The position numbers and the translations under genes were made by a program. From the NCBI GenBank assembly GCA_044892505.1, contig CM097883.1, positions 57,722,001 to 57,786,000 of the forward strand: a DNA stretch of 64,000 nt. Direction: 5' to 3'. Shown here piece after piece: positions 730-58,499 of this stretch; position 1 is the stretch's first letter; each line of letters begins with the position of its first letter. The notes beneath the pieces were generated by a model. The model did no database searches, had not been told where the DNA came from, and worked only from the letters and a program-made list of their open reading frames with translations. The DNA comes from Schmidtea nova (lineage: Eukaryota).

Positions 730-3700
730 TATATTATTAATTTAAAATCAGTTAAAATTCAATTTTGTCTCAAGGTAGAATTTGAGAAAGATGATCAATT
801 ACAATCTTTTGTCATCTCAAATTCTGCCAGAGAGTGGAGTGATACATTTATTGAGGAAGGTATCACTAATTTAAATGAGAAGATTGTCCAGATTAACGAA
901 AAGGGGAGTAATTGGACAATCTCCAAAATAGAATATATTAGTTTTTTAGTGACTAAATTTTCAGAAATTAGTCGATTGAGCGGCAGCAGTTATATCGAAA
1001 CGCCGAATACTTTAAAAAATTTAAGTTGCCTTGTTAATGTTCAAAATAACGACACCTATTGCTTTCTTTACAGTTTCTTGGCAGTAGTTAAATATAATAG
1101 TATTGAACGCCAATACAGGCATAGGACTACTTCTTATGATCTTTCCCAACTTGTTTTTGACCCCACCGACATGCCCATAAAATTAGTTAACATAAAGAAA
1201 TTTGAGAGACAAAACAGTGGCTATAGTATAAATGTCCTTACATATGACGAAAAGGCCCAAATAGATGTAAGCGAAAATGACAATGATGATAATGTCGTCC
1301 TTAAACACCCCTTTATAGATATAGTCTACCGTAGTAAAGTAGTCGGGGCTATTCCCATAAATTTGCTTCTTTTGGAGAAAAAAGATAATTTTCATTATCT
1401 TGCGATTACCGACCTGAATCGCTTTTTGAATTGTAGAAATAGTGCCATCACCCCAGTTAGGATTTGCAGTCAATGGTGCCCTCGTTGCTTGAATGGGTTT
1501 AGGAACGACGAAGCCTTTAATCGTCATAAGGGTCTTTGTACCAAAAATCAGTTGGGTACTACACTGTACACCTTACCCAAAAATAAATTTTTAGAGTTTA
1601 CTGATTGGAAGAAAACAGTAACTCCTCCTTTCGTAATATATGCAGATTTCGAGGCAATATTACCTAAAGATACTGTTCACCACCAAAAACATCTTCCTAT
1701 TGCCGCAGGTCTCCTTCTCATTAACAACTTTACTGGGGTCAGAATATACAAATCTTTTGTAGGGCTAGACTGTGTTGATCAATTCTTAAGAGAAATTGAG
1801 TCAATCAGTCGGTATATAGTCACACCTTATTATTATAAAAATTATCAAAAACGCATGACCATCACTGCGACCCAACAGCGACAATTTGATAATAGCACTA
1901 ATTGCTATTTATGCAAAAAACTTTTAGTGGCACCGGTTAGGGATCATGACCATTTCACCGGTCTTTATATTGGAGCAGCCTGCTCAGAGTGTAACAAGTC
2001 CCGGCAAATACGCCACTCTTTGCCTGTAATCTTTCATAACTTGAAGGGTTACGATTTGCACCATATTTTAAAATATGGTCTTTCCAAATACAACAGTTGG
2101 AATATTAGTTGTATTCCCTTGACAAGCGAAAAGTTTTTAAGTCTTTTCGCGTACATCGATAGCTTAACGGTCAAGTTTATCGACTCTTACCAGTTTGTAA
2201 GTGAATCATTGAACAATGCAGTAAAAACCCTTACTAACTTACCTTTGACAAACTCGGAATTTCGAGGCACTATAGTCACTGCCAAGGGCATTTTTCCTTA
2301 CGACGCTGCCACTTCTTTAGAAGTTTTAAAATCGACCTTGTCATTACCACCTAAATGGAAAGATATAACTGCTGTCGAGTATGCTGCTGCCCATAAAATC
2401 TGGCAAGAAACCTCATGTACATCACTGTACGATTACATGATGGTTTATTTAAAATTGGACGTTTTTTTATTAGCAGATTATTTCCAACAATTTCGGGTAA
2501 AATCTATTATCCATAACAGGCTTGAGCCTTTAAATTTTCTCGGAATTCCCGGCATGTCGTGGAGTTCCGCTTTATTAACTCTTGACTCTCCTATCGAGCT
2601 CCTCACCGATATGGAGATGTATAACTTTTTCGAGGGCGGTATTCGCGGCGGACTAACGTTTGTCAATAAACATTATGTCAAGACGAGCCCGGATACCGCA
2701 TTACTATATATTGACATTAATAATTTATATGGGTGGGCCTTAAGCCAACCCCTGCCTTGTGGTAATTTTGAGTGGGTCACTGATGACCAATTATTAAATA
2801 ACATCGTTTGTGAGTGCACATCGGAAAATCTCGATACACTTCATTATGGTTACACCATAGAAGTGGATTTGGAAATTCCGGCATCGATTCACGACAAACT
2901 GGATGACCTTCCAGTTGCCGCTGAAAAGATGTGTGCACCGGGATCCAAGGTTGAGAAGCTGTTGCTAACGCATCTTCCAAAGAAGAATTATGTTCTTCAT
3001 TGGCGGCTTCTGCAACTATTTATTAAAATTGGTGTGAAGGTAACGCACATACATCGCGCTATTAAATTTACACAAGAGAAAATATTTTTTAATTATATAA
3101 AAATAAACACAGACTTACGAGCTGCATCTACAAATAAGCTCGATAAGAACTTTTATAAATTATTAAATAATAGTCTCTACGGAAAAACCGTAGAGAATTT
3201 AAAAAAAAGAATAAATTTACGACTGTGTAACTCGGCACAAAAACTGCTGACTTACACGTCAAAAGCTAATTTTAAAAAAACAAACAAAATAGACAATGAC
3301 CTCATCTCCGTATTGCTTCAGAAGGAATCAGTATGTTTGGATAGACCCAGCTACATTGGACAAACCGTACTGGATTTATCCAAACTTCGTATGTACCAGC
3401 TGCAGTATGAAGAGTTACAAAAATATCGTAACGACTTCAACTGCGAAATTAACATCGTTGCTGGGGATACTGATTCCTTCTTCTTGGAAATCAAACATAT
3501 TGACCTTAACACTCTTTTGACCGCAATGATTGACGATAGGCTTTTGGATACCTCTAATTATGACACTCATCATGCATTGTATAGTAGGTCCCTTGATTCT
3601 GTGATTGGCAAATTTAAGGATGAGAATAAGGGTCTACTGTATGATGAGTGGGTTTTCTTAAGACCTAAGTGCTATAGTCTTATGGGAGACGAGGCCTGCA

Positions 3701-3967
3701 TGAAAGCCAAGGGTATCTGTTTGAAAGATGCAGGTCTCACACACCAGTCTTACCTTGACTGTTTTTTAAACGATAAAATATATAATGTCCCCCAGTTCCG
3801 CATTACGAGCAAAAATCACCAGCTCTTTAGTATAAAAAGCAATAAGAGAGCCTTATCTTGTAGGGACGATAAGAGGAACTGGGTGGAAAAAAATAAAAGT
3901 TTGGCGTATGGCCACTATATGGGGGGTGACACCACTATATTTGTAGGTGATCGGGATGTCCAAGAGC

Positions 3968-4005
<38 letters not shown>

Positions 4006-4065
4006 GGTCCGGCTGATGACCCCTACGAGTTTTATGACCCGACGGCTCGGGATTATTTCGGATGA
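730..4065 (+). CDS. Protein-primed family B DNA polymerase (Polinton/adintovirus type) with OTU-like and endonuclease VII-like inserts
   Basis: Motifs: Exo I IYADFEA, Exo II FHNLKGYD, Exo III YLKLDVFLLADYF, Pol A LYIDINNLYG, Pol B KLLNNSLYGK, Pol C GDTDS, plus RPKCY and KAKG. Also an EndoVII-like CYLC...DHDHFTG...CSECN, an OTU-like DTYCFLYS...FHYLAI and a terminal-protein-like GSNW. The frame is open from 730, upstream of the ORF-track start at 949. Confidence 0.95.
3967..4005 (+). repeat. (CAA)13 encoding a C-terminal polyQ tract of pPolB
   Basis: Directly visible; translates Q13. Confidence 0.95.
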
Positions 4066-5059
4066 TGGAAAGATTGATGATGACAAGGACGATAAAGATG
4101 AAAAAAAAAAATAAATAAATAAATAAAAACCGAAAAGAATAAACAGAAAAGAAAAAAAAAAGATATGAGAACGCACAATCGGCCCTCTTCAGGGCCACAA
4201 TTGGTGATTGTAAACATATATATATAAATTAGATACAAGAAAACAGAAAAGAAATAATGAAAATTTGAAAATGAAACATAAATGAAATAATGAGATTTAA
4301 AAAACAGAAACAGAAAAGGATTCAGAATCAGATTGTGAAAGAATTAACTGTCCTCTTTAGGGCCAATACATTTTGATTGTAATAAATTGCGCAATCAATT
4401 AAAACTAATGAATTATTTTTTTTTTGTTATTTTTTTTATATGTTATTATTTTTACTTTTTTTTTATAAGTTCTTTTTATAAGTTATTTTTATNNNNNNNN
4501 NNNNNNNNNNNNNNNNNNNNNNNNNNNNNNNNNNNNNNNNNNNNNNNNNNNNNNNNNNNNNNNNNNNNNNNNNNNNNNNNNNNNNNNNNNNNNNNNNNNN
4601 NNNNNNNNNNNNNNNNNNNNNNNNNNNNNNNNNNNNNNNNNNNNNNNNNNNNNNNNNNNNNNNNNNNNNNNNNNNNNNNNNNNNNNNNNNNNNNNNNNNN
4701 NNNNNNNNNNNNNNNNNNNNNNNNNNNNNNNNNNNNNNNNNNNNNNNNNNNNNNNNNNNNNNNNNNNNNNNNNNNNNNNNNNNNNNNNNNNNNNNNNNNN
4801 NNNNNNNNNNNNNNNNNNNNNNNNNNNNNNNNNNNNNNNNNNNNNNNNNNNNNNNNNNNNNNNNNNNNNNNNNNNNNNNNNNNNNNNNNNNNNNNNNNNN
4901 NNNNNNNNNNNNNNNNNAGTAATTATAGTTATTATTACGAGTATTTATTGTTATTATTATTATCATTATTATTAATATAATTATTATTATTATTATTTTG
5001 ATTATTACTATTATTAATATGTACACGTACACAACGATATATTTATAAATAAATTTTGG

Positions 5060-5240
5060 CTTTTTAATGTCTTTGTTTATGTTGCACATGTGTTGCACGC
5101 ATGTGTCTTTGTTTAGTTTGCATGTGTATTGCAATGTCTTTGTTCATGTTGCACGCGTGTTGCAAAGTCCTTGCACGTGTGTTGCAATGTCTTTGTTAAC
5201 TTGCACGCATGTTGCAAAGTCTTTGTTTAGTTTGACAGAT
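5060..5240. repeat. Maverick subterminal repeat with GTCTTTGTT cores and TTGCA motifs
   Basis: Five GTCTTTGTT copies at ~30-50 bp spacing; further copies near 5415, 6232 and 6270. A homologous block lies at 51290-51450. Confidence 0.8.
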
Positions 5241-5559
5241 AATAATAATAATTAAACAACAACATTAGTAGCAGAACATTTAGTATCAGAACCCTGGAAG
5301 CAGAACATTCCGAGCAGAACCCTGGAAGCAGAACCTCTTCTGTGATGGTTTTTAAGTGCAAAAGCTTCATACTTGACAAATAATAATTAATTAAAAATGC
5401 ACACATATAAAAATGTCTTTGTTTAGTTTGCACACCTGTTGTAAATATTTTTGATGACTCTAATTTTGTCTTATAAAAAAAAATTGACTAAAAGAAATTG
5501 GTGTGTTAAAAAATTTGTGTTAAAAAATTTATGTTAAAAAATTTGTGTTAAAAAATTTG

Positions 5560-6118
5560 TGGTAAAAAAATTTTCTAAAAAAAAAAATTTGGTGTGAAAA
5601 AAATTTTTGAAAAAAAAAAAAAATTTGGCGCGAAAAAAAATTTTGAAAAAAAAAAATTTGGCGCGAAAAAATTTTTAAAAAAAAAAATTTGGCGCGAAAA
5701 AAATTTTTAAAAAAAAAAAAATTTTGTCGCAAAAAAAATTTTTGAAAAAAAAAATTTGGCGCGAAAAAATTTTTGAAAAAAAAAATTGGTAGCAAAAAAA
5801 AATTTTTGAAAAAAAAAAAATTTGGCGCAAAAAAAAATTTTTGAAAAAAAAAAATTTGGCGCGAAAAAATTTTTGAAAAAAAAAATTTGGCGCGAAAAAA
5901 ATTTTTGAAAAAAAAAAATTTGTCGCAAAAAAAATTTTTGAAAAAAAAAAATTTGGCGCGAAAAAATTTTTGAAAAGAAAAATTTGGCGCGAAAAAAATT
6001 TTTGAAAAAAAAAAAATTTGGCCCAAAAAAAATTTTTGAAAAAAAAAAATTTGGCCAGAAAAAAATTATTGAAAAAAAAAATTTGGCGCGAAAAAAAATT
6101 TTGAAAAAAAAAATTTTT
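5560..6118. repeat. ~31-34 bp tandem array (T-tract, G, A-tract, TTTGGCGCGAAA)
   Basis: About 17 units. Nine carry a perfect TTTGGCGCGAAA (near 5624, 5657, 5688, 5755, 5855, 5886, 5952, 5983, 6082); the rest are variants (GGTGTG, TGTCGC, GGCGCA, GGCCCA, etc.). Confidence 0.95.
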
Positions 6119-6193
6119 ATGACTCATCGATGACTCATCAAAAAAAAATTATGACTCATCGATGACTCATCGATGACTCATCGATGACTCATC
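6119..6193. promoter_or_regulatory. Cluster of six TGACTCA (AP-1 consensus) motifs in 11-bp ATGACTCATCG units
   Basis: TGACTCA at 6120, 6131, 6152, 6163, 6174 and 6185, plus TGAGTCA near 6259. Function is inferred from the motif only. Confidence 0.6.
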
Positions 6194-6895
6194 AAAAAAA
6201 AATTTTCTACCCCCCCCCGGGGGGGAGGGGGTCTTTGTTCTTTTTTTCCGCCCACGCATGAGTCATAATGTCTTTGTTCCCGGCTCCACACATCTACCTA
6301 CTGTGATTGTACATTCCGAGAAATAAGACGTCTGTCGTCGAGTTTGTGTCTGATACTGAGTGGTATATTGAAATTCATTTATAATTTTTATGTATATTTT
6401 GTATTTAAATTTTTTTGTCATTTTTTTGTGTTAATGTTTGTCTGTTTTTTATTATTTCATGAAAATGAAAGTGTGATGAATAATAAAGATTGTTATTTTT
6501 TTTATGTAGTATGTGTTTAAATGTATAAAAGATGTTAGCGAATACGGCACAATAAAATTTTAAAAAATATATTAGTTAGCGCTTTTCAGAGTTCTTACGA
6601 ATTTTATTTATAAAATATACTTTACGATGCTCAATATATATGTTATCAAAACAAAATTTGCTCATGTGGAAACTGGTATAATTATCGATAGTCAATGTAA
6701 AATCTACAATTTTGAAAAAACTATATATGTTAAGAACAGAATAGATTTGTCGTTCGCCAAACTATCTGCTTTTTATACATTTCAAATATATTTTTATAAA
6801 AGTGCGTTTGTAAGTGCGTTTTGTAAGTGCGTTTGTAAAAAGAGTTTGTAATATTACAACAAAATTTTAATAATAAAATTTTATATAATAATAGT

Positions 6896-26431: not shown

Positions 26432-29400
26432 GGTGGTCCTTAATTTTGAAAAGTTGAAATCCTGTGCTCTCACCTCATAGAATTGTTTGTTATTATGACA
26501 GGATGCTGTGCTAATTTTATTTTTATTTTTGGATGATGTTTAGAGGTCGCCCAAGCTTTGGAATTGGAAATTCATCAAAATCGCTGCAAATGAGCTTCTA
26601 GAAACTATTTTTTATTTTCTCACTACTTATTTTGGTCAGTTCTGTTAGTTAGTTGATCCCAAACAATTAATTTAACCTCTAATAAATAATCTTTGTTGAT
26701 CAATAATACTGTCTGATTAGGAATTTGCAGTTTTATTAAGTTTTCTATGAAATGGCGTCATCTTTTTGGTGAGTAAACTTTTTCATGTGTTGTATGTTTT
26801 AGCTGCTGCTTTGCCATTCAGAACATTCAGTTATTATGCACTATTTGCCATTTTTTAGGCCAGAAAGTAAACATTCCACATGTAGACACAGTGACACACC
26901 AGTGTTAGTGTAATATTGTATTGTATGATATGTTGTTGTTGTGATGTAGTGAAGAATTTGATATAACAACACGAAGTCAAACTGCAGTTTATCTACTGGG
27001 TCAACCCACTACTGTGCTTTCTACTCTCAGACTTGCATCAAATGGTGAAGCATTGGGTTTGTTTTTCCATCACCACCTAACCCATGGTCTGCAGACACGA
27101 CAGGCATCAGCACATGTGATCGAACAGGTGACTGGAATTTGGAACAAGGCCCGCATACCGACATGTCGCAAAGACCATGCAATCACCAAGCTGGAGCAAC
27201 TATTCAAAGATTGGACACAGCTAAAAAAGCACAAAGATCGCAAGACAGAGCTCCATGTTGCCAGAGAAGATGAGTTTTGCGCCAAAATGAAGAATCTTTT
27301 TGACATTGCACATGCCGACGCCCTAACGACTATGAAGATCGAGGAAGATAGAGAATTTCTGCTGGCACAGCGAGAACCAGGACGACGAGGTTACCTTGGA
27401 TTAGTTGATAGAGCATTAGCTGAAAAAGAAGAGAGAAAAGCAGTCAGAATAAACTTGGAGAGGAAGAGACGTGAAAGAGCAGAAAGCGAGGCATCCGTTA
27501 GCACAATGGTTGCAGGATTTGGCAGCAGTAGTGAAGATGACAATAAACCTGAATCGGACACAGATAAGCCTGCTGAGTTCTCATCACCTCGCCGTAAGAA
27601 AAGCAGAGCAGCAACAAATGTGATTACCCCAAAGTTAGCAGCTGCCTTGGATCGTACCAAGTTGAGTGACAGAAAGGCTACGTTTGTCATTGCTGCGGCA
27701 GCTCAGAGCCTTGGGCATGATATTGATGAACTCAATATAAATCGGAGTTCTATAAAGCGTCACCGCGAGAAATACAGAGCTGAAATGGCAGCTGCATTAA
27801 AGGAAGATTTGTCTAGTGATGTTCCTTTGGTGGTACATTGGGATGGCAAACTAATGGTCGATCTCACTGGGAAGGATCACGTTGATCGCCTCCCTATAAT
27901 TGTGACCGGCTTTGGGGTGTGTCAGCTATTGAAGGTGAGCAAGATGTCTGGTGGAACAGGTGAGAACCAGTCATCTGCAGTGGTCCAGGCACTGAATGAG
28001 TGGAATGTGCAGGATCGTGTGGTAGGATTGTGCTTTGATACAACTAGTTCCAACACTGGTATCCACAACGGTGCCTGTGTTCTGATAGAACAGAAGCTAG
28101 GCAAGGACTTACTACACTTTGCCTGTCGCCACCACATTATGGAACTGTTGGCAGGAGCCGCATTTACAGTAAGTCTTGCACCATCATCTGCTTCTGAAGT
28201 CCTTCTGTTCAAGAGATTTCAACAAAAGTGGTCAATCCTCGACCACAATAACTACCAGACGGGAGCTAATTTGAATGAAATACCTGACGTGGTGAAGAAC
28301 GAAGTAATGGAATTTGCACACAGGCAGCTGCTTCGTGACAACGTCCGAGAAGACTACAGAGAATTCATTGAATTATCTATCATATTTCTTGGTGGCTTAC
28401 CCCATCGTGGGATTCATTTTATGGCACCTGGTGCAATGCACCATGCGAGATGGATGTCGAAAGTGATCTACTCACTCAAAGTGTGGATGTTTCGCTCACA
28501 ATTCAAGCTCACATCGTTCGAGGAGAAAGGACTTCTCCACATGTGCATCTTTGCAGTGGTTATATACCTCAAGGCCTGGTTCACTGCACCACTGGCTTCC
28601 AGTGCGCCTCGAAATGATCTGCAACTGCTTCAAGATTTGCACAATTACAAGCGTTACAATGAGAAAATCTCTATCGCAACATCCAAAAAACTTGAGCATC
28701 ATCTTTGGTATTTGTCGGAAGATTTAGTGGGTCTTGCCTTCTTCGATCCCGATGTACCGGTCGATACAAAACGTCAAATGGTGAAAGCACTGAATTACTG
28801 TAGCAAGGATGCCGTCGACAAAGTACTTCTACCAAAAGGTCTGAAACGCATCACAATGTCTGCAAGCAGTGCATGCAACTACAGTTTGGAGGATTTCATA
28901 ACTGTCAGATCTCAGGAATTCTTTGATAAGCTCCATATTTCTCAAGACTTCTTGAATTACGATCCTGACACTTGGGAAACTCGACAGGAGTACACAGATG
29001 GCATGTTGATCGTGTCTAAGCTACTAGTCACCAATGATAATGCAGAACGTGGAGTTGCCCTTGTTCAGGAGCTAAACAAGTGTATCACATACGATGAGGA
29101 CCAGTTTCAGTTTCTGCTGCAAGTTGTGGCAGACCATCGTCGTCAGTATGCAACCTGTCAGAAGTCGTTATTACATTGACTTAGTTGCGGAATGCGGAGT
29201 GCGGACATCGTCTTTGGTTGGACCGACTGACACTGACAGTCTAGAACATTTATTCCTATAAATAAATCTTAACAATAGATTCTGTACATTACGGAGTTTC
29301 ATATTTCCTAGTCATTTAATAACATAATAAAACGTTACCAATTTCAGTTTAGTAATAAAAATACTATACTATGCTCAAGTCAAATTTTTTGGTCATTTTA

Positions 29401-29627: not shown

Positions 29628-31181
29628 CATTTTCGCGTTAAATTAGACACTTTCCATTTTAAATTAGACACTTTCGAATTTGAATTAGACACTTTAAAAG
29701 TTGAATTGGACACTTTAAAAGTTGAATTGGACACTTTAAAAGTTGAATTGGACACTAATTATAAAACCCCTACTATTTAATATACGTGTTTTTATAAAAA
29801 TACTTTATAGACAGAACATATCAACTAAATTCCCGCCCAAAAATATATAATCGTTTGAATTCATTTATCATGTCAAATGGTCGATATTATGAATTTTCTG
29901 AGGGATCAAACATTGAAGAAACTGAAATTGATGGTGCGGATGTGCATGAAAATCGCGAATCTCCTATAAAGAAATCGTATGCCAAATCCACCCGGGACGT
30001 TAAAATGGTGCTAATAAGCATGGTCACAGTAGACGGGAAAACAATAAGGGAAGCAGCAGCATCTTGCAGAATTAATGAGAGCACCGCGAGAACGATAATA
30101 AACAACTACAAGCGTAAAAGAACTTTTATTGTAGGCAAAAGAGGTGGTAACAATAAAACAAAAATTACTGATAAAATATTGGACCGAATTGAATTTTTTG
30201 TGGAGAATCGTAATCAAATTACTTTAAAAATGATAAAAAACAAAATTGAAGCCGAAGGAGTGTCTTTATCAACCACGTCTGTGTCTAAATGTCTTGAGAA
30301 GCTTCGTATTACATGTAAAAAAGCTTCTCGTGAACTTGAACGAGTAAATTTACCAGAAACCATTGAAAAGAGACGACGATACGCATTGGATTTTGCCCGA
30401 AATGCTCCTGCGCTGAAAGAGAAATGCATTTTTATAGACGAATGTGGTTTTAATCTACATATTCGTCGAACTACCGCCCGCTCAAAAATTGGAACAAGGG
30501 CAAATATCGTGATGCCAACAGTGAGAGGTCGAAATGTAACTGTTATTGCAGCAATGAATTCAAAAAAAATTATTCATAGCCGCATTGTAGGCGACAGTAC
30601 TTGTACAAGTTCAATATTCGGTGATTTTTTAATGGAGCTAATTGCGATTATTCAACGCGATGAGATTTACAACGGTGCATGGATAATTTTGGATAATGCT
30701 CAAATTCATAAAACTGATTATATACGAAACATCCTTACCGATACTAAATTTGTATTGAAATTTCTCTCACCCTATTCATACATGCTGAATCCCATCGAAA
30801 ATGCATGGAGTAAGTTGAAGAGTTTCGTCAAGAATATTTTATCATCGAATGTGGATAATGTAAATCTACGGGATATTATCTGTAATGGCTTGAACAATAT
30901 TGACCCGGGTGATTGTTGTGGATATGTTATGCATATGATGAATAACATTTCAAAAGCAGTGGCAGGAGAGCGATTTAAAATTTGAAAGATCATGTTTCGA
31001 TTAGTCGTCTTATTTGAAATATATATTCACGTCTTTTACAGTTTTATAACTAGTGTCCAATTCAACTTTTAAAGTGTCCAATTCAACTTTTAAAGTGTCC
31101 AATTCAACTTTTAAAGTGTCTAATTCAAATTTAAAAGTGTCTAATTTAAAGTGGAAAGTGTCTAATTTAACGCGAAAATGC
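29627..31181 (+). mobile_element. Tc1/IS630-like element, copy 1 (1555 bp)
   Basis: ~141-bp TIRs starting GCATTTTCGCG, each with six ~21-bp internal direct repeats; flanked by TA. Confidence 0.95.
29870..30985 (+). CDS. DD34E Tc1/IS630-like transposase (first ATG at 29870)
   Basis: N-terminal HTH (KTIREAA..INESTARTII); FIDE, LDNAQIH and NPIE with 34 residues between the second D and the E. Confidence 0.95.
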   Translation: MSNGRYYEFSEGSNIEETEIDGADVHENRESPIKKSYAKSTRDVKMVLISMVTVDGKTIREAAASCRINESTARTIINNYKRKRTFIVGKRGGNNKTKITDKILDRIEFFVENRNQITLKMIKNKIEAEGVSLSTTSVSKCLEKLRITCKKASRELERVNLPETIEKRRRYALDFARNAPALKEKCIFIDECGFNLHIRRTTARSKIGTRANIVMPTVRGRNVTVIAAMNSKKIIHSRIVGDSTCTSSIFGDFLMELIAIIQRDEIYNGAWIILDNAQIHKTDYIRNILTDTKFVLKFLSPYSYMLNPIENAWSKLKSFVKNILSSNVDNVNLRDIICNGLNNIDPGDCCGYVMHMMNNISKAVAGERFKI

Positions 31182-31189
31182 TATATATA

Positions 31190-32742
31190 GCATTTTCGCG
31201 TTAAATTAGACACTTTCCACTTTAAATTAGACACTTTTAAATTTGAATTAGACACTTTAAAAGTTGAATTGGACACTTTAAAAGTTGAATTGGACACTTT
31301 AAAAGTTGAATTGGACACTAGTTATAAAACTGTAAAAGACGTGAATATATATTTCAAATAAGACGACTAATCGAAACATGATCTTTCAAATTTTAAATCG
31401 CTCTCCTGCCACTGCTTTTGAAATGTTATTCATCATATGCATAACATATCCACAACAATCACCCGGGTCAATATTGTTCAAGCCATTACAGATAATATCC
31501 CGTAGATTTACATTATCCACATTCGATGATAAAATATTCTTGACGAAACTCTTCAACTTACTCCATGCATTTTCGATGGGATTCAGCATGTATGAATAGG
31601 GTGAGAGAAATTTCAATACAAATTTAGTATCGGTAAGGATGTTTCGTATATAATCAGTTTTATGAATTTGAGCATTATCCAAAATTATCCATGCACCGTT
31701 GTAAATCTCATCGCGTTGAATAATCGCAATTAGCTCCATTAAAAAATCACCGAATATTGAACTTGTACAAGTACTGTCGCCTACAATGCGGCTATGAATA
31801 ATTTTTTTTGAATTCATTGCTGCAATAACAGTTACATTTCGACCTCTCACTGTTGGCATCACGATATTTGCCCTTGTTCCAATTTTTGAGCGGGCGGTAG
31901 TTCGACGAATATGTAGATTAAAACCACATTCGTCTATAAAAATGCATTTCTCTTTCAGCGCAGGAGCATTTCGGGCAAAATCCAATGCGTATCGTCGTCT
32001 CTTTTCAATGGTTTCTGGTAAATTTACTCGTTCAAGTTCACGAGAAGCTTTTTTACATGTAATACGAAGCTTCTCAAGACATTTAGACACAGACGTGGTT
32101 GATAAAGACACTCCTTCGGCTTCAATTTTGTTTTTTATCATTTTTAAAGTAATTTGATTACGATTCTCCACAAAAAATTCAATTCGGTCCAATATTTTAT
32201 CAGTAATTTTTGTTTTATTGTTACCACCTCTTTTGCCTACAATAAAAGTTCTTTTACGCTTGTAGTTGTTTATTATCGTTCTCGCGGTGCTCTCATTAAT
32301 TCTGCAAGATGCTGCTGCTTCCCTTATTGTTTTCCCGTCTACTGTGACCATGCTTATTAGCACCATTTTAACGTCCCGGGTGGATTTGGCATACGATTTC
32401 TTTATAGGAGATTCGCGATTTTCATGCACATCCGCACCATCAATTTCAGTTTCTTCAATGTTTGATCCCTCAGAAAATTCATAATATCGACCATTTGACA
32501 TGATAAATGAATTCAAACGATTATATATTTTTGGGCGGGAATTTAGTTGATATGTTCTGTCTATAAAGTATTTTTATAAAAACACGTATATTAAATAGTA
32601 GGGGTTTTATAATTAGTGTCCAATTCAACTTTTAAAGTGTCCAATTCAACTTTTAAAGTGTCCAATTCAACTTTTAAAGTGTCTAATTCAAATTCGAAAG
32701 TGTCTAATTTAAAATGGAAAGTGTCTAATTTAACGCGAAAAT
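31190..32742 (-). mobile_element. Tc1/IS630-like element, copy 2, inverted and tail-to-tail with copy 1
   Basis: Mirror image about 31185.5 with spacer TATATATA; the outer terminal GC is missing. Confidence 0.95.
31386..32501 (-). CDS. DD34E transposase, identical protein to copy 1
   Basis: The ORF track gives an identical translation at mirrored coordinates. Confidence 0.95.
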   Translation of the reverse strand: MSNGRYYEFSEGSNIEETEIDGADVHENRESPIKKSYAKSTRDVKMVLISMVTVDGKTIREAAASCRINESTARTIINNYKRKRTFIVGKRGGNNKTKITDKILDRIEFFVENRNQITLKMIKNKIEAEGVSLSTTSVSKCLEKLRITCKKASRELERVNLPETIEKRRRYALDFARNAPALKEKCIFIDECGFNLHIRRTTARSKIGTRANIVMPTVRGRNVTVIAAMNSKKIIHSRIVGDSTCTSSIFGDFLMELIAIIQRDEIYNGAWIILDNAQIHKTDYIRNILTDTKFVLKFLSPYSYMLNPIENAWSKLKSFVKNILSSNVDNVNLRDIICNGLNNIDPGDCCGYVMHMMNNISKAVAGERFKI

Positions 32743-34063: not shown

Positions 34064-35040
34064 CATCAGTAAAATAATTACATCATAGAGTGCAATATAG
34101 ATCAGAGGATCCCAAGCATTGTTGAGTGAGCATTACATTAAAATTTTAATATTTATTGTAGTGCCTTAGATTAAATTTTCAATTTTATAAATTAATTAAT
34201 TATTAAATGGAGTAAAATTATAGATGTTGTTTTAATATTTACATATTTTCACTTTCATGCTGATCAAAAAAAAACAAAATGCAAGCTGTTAACAATGATT
34301 CAATATACCTATTCACCCAAGACATTCACAGTGACTCGTTTTCATCAAATGACAGCGATTATCAGTTTTACTCTAGTGGAGATGGTGTAGTGGATATTCA
34401 AAGAAGAAACAATTGCCAGTTCAGTAGATTGCAGAAATGTTTCGCTGCTGGAATGCGTAAAGAAGCCGTACAAACTGGAAGATGCTTGTCAACAACTGGA
34501 TCAATATTAATATACTATCCAGACAAATCTGAAATGACTAACTCAAAAAATCTACAAATCAATACATTGGATCACAATCAATCTCGATTAAAGGATTATT
34601 CGCCAGCACCAGAAATCAATCAATACGGACTGTCATGGAGCTCGCTCATTTCAACTCTTGTTATCACCGGTGAAGATTTCCGGTTGCGAAAAACCGACTT
34701 ATCAATTAGCGATCAATTTATATTAATAAAATCTGATTTGCTTTTAGTATTCCTACATTTATCTTTTTAACATTACTTTTAATGTCAAAAATATTTAACT
34801 TAATTTAAAAGCACATCAATTTAAATTTACAAAACCTTTTTTAATTTTATTATTCTTGTTCATTATTTTTAAAACAAACCAAAACATTTATTAACAAAAT
34901 AGAAAAAATTTAACTTTTGCTCAATTTTTTGCAAATGTGAAGTGTGTAATTGCATTTTTGTTATGAATATAGATAAAATTTTATTGTCAATTGCAATCCG
35001 TCAGTCTGATTCTAGATTTAGTTAGGGTGTAAAGCCAAAG

Positions 35041-51279: not shown

Positions 51280-51661
51280 TTTTAATCGGTTTGCAATTTC
51301 TTTGTTAACTCGCACGTGTATTTCAATGTCTTTGTTATTATTGCACATTGATTGCATTGTCTTTGTTAAGTTGCATCTGTAATGTAATGTCTTTATTAAG
51401 TTGCATTTGCAATGTAATGTCGTTGTTAATGTACATATGTATCTTTTGCGATGTGCTTGTTTAAATTGTAATAGGAAAATATTTTTTTAAAAAAAAGTAA
51501 TAGAAGATTTTTTCAAACACGCATACACACACGATCTCGGGTATGATACTCATCTGTCAGTTACCTTTTGTTTGATATACTTATTATATAGTTTTAAAAA
51601 TTTGAACCTTGGACCTTTCGAGGGTATGACCTCTAAACTTACTTTTGAATTACCTTTACTT

Positions 51662-51715
<54 letters not shown>

Positions 51716-52668
51716 CATATACTATAAAGTTTTAAAGATTTTGGACACCTTGAAGTTTTTTTAAGGTTTGGAGGTTCAGTACCCTCCATTAACCTTTGAA
51801 AGTATGACAATGATACTTACATCTCAAATGTCTTTTGTTTGATATGTATATTATGAGGTATTAAAATTTTTGAACCTTGAACCCTTTAAGGGTATGACCT
51901 TCAAACTCACTATCAAACGTCCTTTTGAATGATATATAACTAGTAAGGTTTGTAAAACATTTAACTTTGGACACTCCTTGAAGGTTATTGACGCACCACA
52001 AACCTTTGATGGTATGACCATCATACACATCTCACAAATACCTTCCGAATGATATATAACTTGTAAGGTTTAAATATCTTTGAAGATTTTTGACACCTTG
52101 AAGGTTGAGCACCCACCATAAACCTTCATAATTATGACCATTGTGTTCACATCTCCACTACCTTTTGTTTGATATATAACTTGTAATGTTTAAAAATTCT
52201 TTGAAGGTTTTTGACCTCTTGAAAGTTGAGCACACACCATACATCTTCAAGGGTATGACCATCATACTTACCTCTCAATTACCTTTCGAATGATATATAA
52301 CTTCTAAGGATTGAAAAAGGTTGAAGGTCTTTGACCCTATGAAGGTTCAGGATTCTCCATAAACCTTCGAGGGTATGACCATTGTATGCACCTCTCAAAG
52401 ACCTTTCGAATGATACACTTATTTGAAGGTTTGACCTTATTTGACCTTTGGAAATTTAAATTAAAAATTTTAATTTGAAATGAATCATCGATGACATCAT
52501 AAAATTCAAATTTGGAATGAGTCATCGATGAGTCATAAAAATTTTTTACTCACCCGGGGTAGGAGTTCAGATGAGTTATGGTCTTTGTTATGAGTCATCG
52601 AGGAGTCATCGATGACTCATATGTCTTTGTTTAAGTATGACTCATGGTGGACACTACTGTCTACTACT
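51280..52668 (+). mobile_element. Second Maverick/Polinton terminal region (orphan right end)
   Basis: Ends ...ACACTACTGTCTACTACT (reverse complement AGTAGTAG). GTCTTTGTT/TTGCA block, TGA(C/G)TCA cluster and CATATGTCTTTGTT are shared with 5060-6302. Confidence 0.8.
51540..52430. repeat. Diverged tandem array of ~90- and ~120-bp units
   Basis: GTATGAC anchor near 51541, 51623, 51802, 51892, 52012, 52133, 52253 and 52373. Confidence 0.85.
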
Positions 52669-57055: not shown

Positions 57056-58499
57056 ATTAATTAATAAATAAGTAACAAAATAAGCCGTTGCTGCAAAAAT
57101 AATTTTATTAAGTGAGAAAATTTTCGATTATCAAATAATCCTCGTCAATCTCTAATTCGGCAAATAACTGGTATCTTCATTCATTCTGTTGTTTCTTTTT
57201 TCGTGATTTCTCTCCATTTTCATTGGATGTTAATCTGATTAATAAATGTTTTAAATTCTTAATTGTTTTTTAAATGTTTTTTTTGTTAAAAATTTAAAAA
57301 TATAAAATAAAAACTCCAAATTTTTTAAAAATCTTTCTAAATTTCTTTTCGAATAAATAAATTTATCCTTTTTTTAAATTTAAAATTTTTAAAATTTTTA
57401 TTGCCTGCATTCTACATTTTTAATTTTCTAACTCTTAATATTTGATTTTATTTTTTATAATTTTACAATTTAATTATATTATATCTCTTTGAAATGCCCA
57501 TAAATTCTCTGTACTATCACTTTTCTTTCTCCATTTTTTATATCTTCCTTTTACTTTTATACTTTCTTATTTGTAGAACCACATGTTTTTTTAACAAGAT
57601 AGTAAGTGGGCGATTTCGCTAACTTCCTCTTTAGAGTTAATTTTTGGGTGTTTGTCTCTAATGAGAATAGCTTCTTTAAGTCTGAGATTTTTCTCGTCGT
57701 TTTCGTTTGTCAATATTCTCACTGATATTAATTTTTCCTTATTTTCTGTCTGACATTGGTGAAGATGTCTATATACAGATGACTTTCCACCAGGATCAAG
57801 ATGTTCTTTAATTCTCTGATGCAAAGTCCGAAGGGCGCTTCCGATGTAAATTTCTTTGTATTTATTACACATGATGCTATAGACAATGTTCTTGAGAAAG
57901 CATAATTTCTTTGGTGTTTGGCAATTTTCCATCTTACATGTATTTTCCTTTCTCTTGTTGTTAGCTAGAGCTTGCCTTAATGTCTTAGATCTATGTGCCA
58001 AACGAATCGGAAGGCCAGTGAGATTAAGTTCTTTGATGATCATGAAATTTATTCGATCACTGATGAAAGGAATTCGAAGGTAGAAATCTTTCTTTTCCTT
58101 TTGTAGGTCTTTCTGCCTTCTCTGGTTGAATTTTACTTTGTTGATCTCGTTAATATTATGGTATCCATTACGATGCAGGACTTCTGTAAATATTCTTTGT
58201 TGTACTGAATTGTCCTCTTCCTTTGTGCATCGATTAGCTATCCTTTGTCTCTCATTTCTAATGACGTTTACCTTCTGCAGATGAGGAAGTGCTGATCTTT
58301 GGTGCATAAATATTACTTTGCCGGCTGATTTTCTGTAGAACCCATATGATGGTGTGTCTGAGTTGATTTTTATTCTCAGATCCAATAGTTCGAGGAATCC
58401 GTCTTCTTGACGAGGATTATTTGATAATCGAAAATTTTCTCACTTAATAAAATTATTTTTGCAGCACCGGCTTATTTTGTTACTTATTTATTAATTAAT
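57056..58499. mobile_element. Family-B inverted repeats (93 bp each) enclosing a Penelope fragment
   Basis: 57056-57148 and 58407-58499 are reverse complements with one mismatch by eye. Confidence 0.75.
57591..58420 (-). pseudogene. 5'-truncated Penelope-like element: RT thumb plus GIY-YIG endonuclease
   Basis: DGFLELLDLRI, FYRKS, RNGY, IPFIS, NIVYSIMC...YIGS..RTLHQRIKEH and LRLKEAILIR..PKIN. Confidence 0.92.

Follow-up and report, generated by a model that had tools for sequence, protein, structure and literature searches.

The right end of a Maverick element in Schmidtea nova carries tandem arrays of AP-1-type motifs. Judged from sequence, these arrays are probably host bZIP (Fos/Jun, ATF/CREB) sites in a putative modular enhancer, through which host factors would activate the integrated element when cells are stressed or dividing. 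The window analyzed was 64,000 nucleotides of contig CM097883.1 (positions 57,722,001 to 57,786,000), and plain coordinates below refer to it. The location of the repeats, their copy number, the identity of the motifs, and the repeated amplification of one 9-mer in different repeat units were observed directly.

TGACTCA was found at 6120 and 6131 and then at 6152, 6163, 6174, and 6185, in 11-bp steps with 21 bp separating the two blocks, which agrees with the two plus four copies reported in the preliminary description. The true repeated unit was the 9-mer ATGA(C/G)TCAT. Array 1 (6119–6138) contained two ATGACTCAT and array 2 (6151–6192) contained four, both with CG spacers. The C9-G7-A-G5 patch (6210–6231), TGAGTCA (6259), and the terminus (6302) were also present as described. 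The HMG-box-type motif GTCTTTGTT was located at 6231–6239 and again at 6270, where it was joined to the end-proximal ATGAGTCAT in a bZIP and HMG composite (6258–6278) whose 7-mer begins 38 nt inside the terminus. A perfect EGR/Zif268-type 9-mer, GCGTGGGCG (6249–6257, minus strand), abutted the last AP-1 site and was present in 29 of 30 related loci; it had been overlooked previously. The E2F array and CTTTGTT repeats noted nearby were mapped to nine E2F-type TTTGGCGCG in a 33-bp A/T-tract repeat (5624–6090) and five GTCTTTGTT of the Sox/TCF HMG-box type in ~30-bp repeats (5069–5227). The labels AP-1, CRE, EGR/Zif268, E2F, and HMG (Sox/TCF) are what we take these motifs to be from general knowledge, not from a motif database.

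TGASTCA occurred 17 times in the 64-kb window against 5.43 expected, and none of 100 shuffles reached 17. Twelve of the 17 fell in two Maverick-type ends, at 6302 and 52668. The second end (51290–52668, minus strand) is that of a second Maverick-type family and reads AGTAGTAGACAG inward. Five TGASTCA, in both orientations, were located there together with HMG-type repeats and a 120-bp repeat; no mate was found within the window. The E2F array was replaced by this 120-bp tandem repeat in other families. The repeat (51889–52415 here, and in several sister-family ends) contained repeated AGGTCA-like half-sites, with AGGTCA-N4-AGGTCA, presumably a nuclear-receptor-type site, at its outer edge. Elsewhere, the window contained a perfect, spacerless inverted duplication of 1,557 bp (29629–32742), each arm with a 371-aa DDE transposase ORF, a C4 zinc-finger (nuclear-receptor-type) exon (34279–34770), a GIY-YIG ORF (57591–58307), and a GC-rich 630-aa ORF without a Pfam match (27287–29179).

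The arrays had been placed just inside a Maverick end, and this placement was confirmed by an exact end, a mate end, a 6-bp duplication, and core genes. All 30 related loci, taken from the best genome matches, diverged immediately beyond 6302, and public contigs had loose ends there, which ruled out an assembly artifact. The terminus reads AGTAGGTAGATG inward (6291–6302, minus strand), with the terminal sequence CTACCTACT at 6294–6302. The mate end was located at G000:C2:57702420 (L032:420), and the target-site duplication GTGATT (6 bp; 6303–6308 on the right) flanks both ends. Blastn and local alignment to the mate defined a right terminal inverted repeat (TIR) of ~1.3 kb (5020–6302), with 1143 matches and 36 mismatches. 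Both ends were found for 12 of the sampled elements, and 11 of these had matching 6-mer target duplications.

The gene set between the ends comprised a TBP-like protein, an A32-type ATPase, an rve integrase, two capsid candidates, a C5 protease, and protein-primed DNA polymerase B (pPolB). The pPolB ORF (1171–4065, plus strand; Pfam DNA_pol_B_2, PF03175, E 7.6e-28) is transcribed towards the right end, and the genes adjoining each end of the element point towards that end. The integrase (rve, E 2.6e-8, plus a chromo domain) was split over two frames. The packaging ATPase matched Pox_A32 (E 1.5e-6), and the adenoviral-type protease matched Peptidase_C5 (E 5.3e-6). The capsid candidates were ORFs of 406 and 350 aa without a Pfam match, conserved in position in distant elements. 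As for the (AGT)2/(AG)3 end motif, the studied family ends in a variant, AGTAGGTAG, and AGTAGT is present at the other Maverick-type end in the window. On this sequence evidence every defining test run identifies the element as a Maverick, with the capsid fold and the exact end motif excepted.

The window copy was 25,883 bp long versus 17.5–18.6 kb in seven other gene-carrying copies, because it carries a ~7.8-kb insert with BEL/Pao-type integrase domains (L032:7814 to L031:5616). The integrase (L032:5769-6837) lay in two frames in all gene-carrying copies sampled, with the split in the same position, and was contiguous in distant elements; the frame split is likely a short intron. The compact TBP-like protein (155 aa; L032:4010-4504, minus strand) matched Pfam TBP with E 4e-12, and its structural model (pLDDT 92) had TBP as the best PDB fold. 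About 36 close relatives were found, and 52 of the 81 loci with a relative also matched other Maverick genes. A TBP label is present in a figure legend of the adintovirus paper (10.1101/697771). TATAAA was present within 90 nt upstream of six of the 12 ORF starts surveyed in L032 and L031 (the ATPase, both capsid candidates, the protease, and two unnamed ORFs), with a background of ~1.5 per kb per strand and two of the 12 starts placed a few bases off. It was absent from the same 90 nt upstream of the TBP, polB, and integrase starts.

The terminal 23-mer occurred 6,373 times in the genome, so at least ~3,190 elements share the studied end type. If all copies were full length, they would make up as much as ~4.5% of the genome. 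The AP-1 9-mer ATGACTCAT occurred 164,987 times versus 5,057 for its reversed control, and the CRE 10-mer ATGACGTCAT 24,742 times versus 1,207. The corresponding counts were 15,613 versus 639 for the EGR-type GCGTGGGCG and 32,150 versus 2,253 for the E2F-type TTTGGCGCG; the reversed controls preserve base content, not dinucleotide content. Manual tracing covered 100 ATGACTCAT hits, the first on the plus strand of C1; they come from its first 1.2 Mb and are not a random sample. Ninety-one lay in Maverick-type ends or elements, two probably did, and seven were unassigned. Most perfect AP-1 motifs in the genome appear, on these counts, to lie in Maverick-type ends.

The reading of TGA(C/G)TCA as a bZIP site was strengthened by comparison across families. 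A check of motif conservation covered nine end types and 59 distinct ends, and all of them carried the AP-1 motif. In sister families, ATGACTCAT was retained, flipped, or exchanged for the CRE TGACGTCA inside the same arrays. The 9-mer was amplified in 11-, 12-, 13-, and 37-bp units with variable spacers. Among 36 distinct 13-mer contexts, position −4 was a purine in all 36 and position +4 a pyrimidine in 34, and positions ±5 and ±6 were variable. In five 13-bp arrays with 80 units, 21 of 720 core positions were off the mode, 11 of them at the central base, versus 117 of 320 spacer positions; the units are related by descent, so these figures are descriptive and should not be read as a p-value. 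It is known that bZIP dimers tolerate both 7-bp and 8-bp half-site spacing and a change of the central base. The family-wide motif pattern fits a host bZIP site, as far as sequence can indicate.

The modules around the bZIP sites also varied. Two gene-carrying sister copies had a single AP-1 site per end, indicating that the six-site array is dispensable for spread. A sister family with one AP-1 site per end duplicated an EGR-plus-HMG unit. The EGR 9-mer was present in 43 of 47 ends of the studied type and in 12 of the 14 sister-type ends, and it was absent from the first 120 nt of 14 sampled ends of the C, E, F, and G types. The modular enhancer proposed previously was upheld in its modularity, with modules kept, duplicated, and replaced among families; its enhancer activity is putative. 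Far from the ends, an internal promoter-like site with HMG, CRE, CCAAT, and TATA motifs was found in seven of nine elements examined. In the two copies of another family, the matching region had TGACTCA in one and a variant in the other.

Other proposed features of the arrays were not retained. Helical phasing was rejected: 13-bp pairs (28,787) were as numerous as 11-bp CG-spaced pairs (27,612), 12-bp steps were also common, and a spacing near 10–11 bp was not kept across families. The C9/G7 hairpin folded at −10.8 kcal/mol, no better than shuffles (z −0.39; second z −0.44). Over 38 loci, the run lengths of the patch varied and the G-run was lost in one. By sequence, C9-G7-A-G5 seems to be a GC patch rather than a structured element. 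The single strand of the AP-1 array folded strongly (z −5.7), which was not taken as evidence because the near-palindromic units give this fold. We also considered ATCGAT, which we take to be Cut/Onecut- or DRE-like, as the true motif. It was lost in the 12- and 13-bp arrays and is not invariant, and the CG junction recurs near most ends.

In 80 metagenome loci with distant TBP-bearing elements, GTCTTTGT occurred 43 times versus 13.6 in shuffles and the CRE 14 times versus 3.9. The bZIP–HMG composite occurred six times (in four loci) versus 0.3, with a pattern set after two of those loci had been seen. The AP-1 7-mer was not enriched in the 80 loci (43 versus 43.2), and EGR and E2F motifs were absent or low; few of these contigs reach the terminus. 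As to AP-1 arrays in Mavericks of other hosts, the one match on a viral contig was accompanied by no other Maverick gene.

Fold-back elements of 14–19 kb (L181-L182, L185-L188, L056-L057) had Maverick ends, arms of ~5–6 kb, and proper target duplications. No match to Maverick core genes was found in the three elements. Each arm contained a RING-finger ORF (Pfam zf-C3HC4_3, E 2e-9), for which a homologue search found none. Their near-full size hints at a possible packaging constraint. Two Maverick-type elements were nested in other Maverick copies (L181:1-395, L183:1-354), indicating that nesting occurs.

Candidate binding proteins were searched for in the host and in the element. The host genome gave 11 bZIP matches, all single loci and not a repeat family. 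They include Fos-like and Jun-like genes, and a Fos-like gene shares 92% identity with S. mediterranea Fos-1. A PF11928 search for a host EGR gene gave no match, and its controls likewise gave none. Pfam detected no bZIP among the 14 element ORFs scanned. Three element ORFs (206, 145, and 230 aa) gave no match in Atlas and PDB searches.

Under the enhancer reading, host Fos/Jun would bind the AP-1-type arrays, and likely EGR, E2F, and Sox/TCF sites would join the bZIP sites in one modular enhancer. The clustered sites would open the piRNA-silenced chromatin of the provirus. These sites would then act on promoters inside the element, over 1–5 kb, given that the genes nearest to each end are oriented towards it. 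Finally, immediate-early and E2F input would time element activity to wounding and proliferation. This timing step is the weakest of the four and is proposed only tentatively; the EGR-type site adds to the immediate-early reading. Planarian Polintons are described as piRNA-repressed, yet they gain H3K4me3 and RNA during differentiation (PMC8532177). A caution comes from a planarian motif study, in which motifs were without experimental verification and the presence of a motif by itself predicted regulation poorly (PMC10558129). Against the enhancer, the three core-gene-less elements carry and even triplicate the end modules, though an enhancer has little to drive there, and the direction of the genes beside both ends also counts against it. 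The same holds for the sister copies with a single AP-1 site per end, for the ends that lack the EGR 9-mer in their first 120 nt, and for the distant metagenome loci, with their unenriched AP-1 7-mer and absent or low EGR and E2F motifs.

The main rival is that host factors at these sites may aid protein-primed replication or excision at the end, not transcription. It had not been considered in the preliminary description, is compatible with an enhancer, and has in our analysis a modest chance of being right. It would explain why the core-gene-less fold-back elements keep and triplicate the modules. TGASTCA started 24–38 nt from the terminus in 73 of 79 sampled ends, at a place fixed per family; the sample is biased since most ends were found via the motif, and 11 of 14 sister-type ends found mainly via the EGR pattern were also positive. 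Host-factor sites in the adenovirus inverted terminal repeat are also reported to aid replication (PMC2685984). However, arrays were located up to 1–2.4 kb from the end in other families, the same motifs were found at the internal promoter-like site, and site number and spacing vary freely, unlike those of a geometry-dependent origin.

The arrays could also be neutral slippage products of a near-palindromic 11-bp unit, hitch-hiking on a successful element. Array copy number did differ from one copy to another and between the two ends of a single element, tandem repeats abound in the ends, and element copy number alone yields high genome counts. We consider slippage unlikely, as the same 9-mer was amplified in unrelated 11-, 12-, 13-, and 37-bp units with spacers ~12 times more variable than cores, and the motif occurs together with AP-1/CRE swaps and four other motifs of consensus grade. 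Terminal repeats are often bound by transposases, and the preliminary description offered binding by element-encoded proteins as its alternative. The integrase, the terminal protein/polymerase, the TBP-like protein, or an unnamed ORF might be the binder; the three ORFs without assignment leave room for it, and short exons may have escaped. This alternative is weak and has a slighter chance than slippage: the 14 scanned ORFs contained no bZIP, the bZIP matches in the genome fall at single loci, the fold of the TBP-like protein is that of TBP, a fold that reads TATA-like DNA, and tolerance of both 7-bp and 8-bp half-site spacing is typical of bZIP dimers. The modular host-factor enhancer remains our preferred explanation.

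Transposon LTRs spread inducible factor sites through host genomes, and the studied element likewise is a mobile element that multiplies signal-responsive motifs genome-wide. The differences are that it is DNA-polymerase-based and carries arrays, not single sites; any co-option by the host is hypothetical so far. The adenovirus inverted terminal repeat contains NFI, Oct-1, Sp1, and ATF sites (PMC2685984). Both are ends of protein-primed linear DNA elements with host-factor motifs in the outermost ~100 bp, among them a CRE/ATF-type motif and a GC patch. The planarian repeat differs in being 1.3 kb or much longer, in its tandemly amplified motifs, in the dominance of AP-1, EGR, E2F, and HMG types, in modules shuffled between families, and in its integration in thousands of copies.

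Vertebrate Mavericks/Polintons (PMC8097293) and adintoviruses (10.1101/697771), as described in those papers, share the ~17–18 kb size, TIRs, 6-bp duplication, pPolB, integrase, ATPase, and protease. Vertebrate copies average 22 per genome (PMC8097293) versus at least ~3,190 elements here. The descriptions consulted give 6-bp end motifs only, without factor-site arrays (PMC8097293, 10.1101/697771). In contrast to the elements described there, the studied family carries a gene for a TBP-like protein, and its integrase was split over two frames in all copies sampled; this integrase likely has an intron, whereas vertebrate Mavericks are intronless. AP-1-dependent regeneration-responsive enhancers also have clustered AP-1 motifs, and EGR is a known wound factor in acoels (PMC10232395). 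Those are host enhancers demonstrated by deletion and reporters in that account (PMC10232395), whereas ours is the end of a selfish element known from sequence. Maverick expansion has been reported in Dugesia (10.64898/2025.12.11.693146). A literature search turned up no published description of arrays of factor sites at Maverick ends in the texts consulted (PMC8097293, PMC6431247, 10.1101/697771, PMC11410931); repeat libraries in the supplements may already name these families.

Host-factor sites in adenovirus terminal repeats and the spreading of inducible sites by transposons are already known. New here are the AP-1/CRE interchange, the abutting EGR site, the contrast between core and spacer, and the genome-wide scale. 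The studied family is a candidate for the Schmidtea transposon expansions left unidentified in PMC11410931. For the activation of Mavericks, these ends offer a concrete and testable candidate host-factor code with natural module-swap variants. In the furthest-reaching scenario, which we consider rather improbable, the proviruses would be switched on by wounding (AP-1, CREB/ATF, EGR) and timed by E2F to stem-cell division, and their ends, with well over 90% of the perfect AP-1 motifs (~160,000), would soak up or redirect regeneration factors and seed injury-responsive enhancers. The excess in mobile DNA amounts to ~160,000 AP-1 9-mers, ~23,500 CREs, ~15,000 EGR-type motifs, and ~30,000 E2F-type motifs. 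In a genus that serves as a regeneration model, such an excess would distort any motif-enrichment analysis and could titrate or rewire wound factors.
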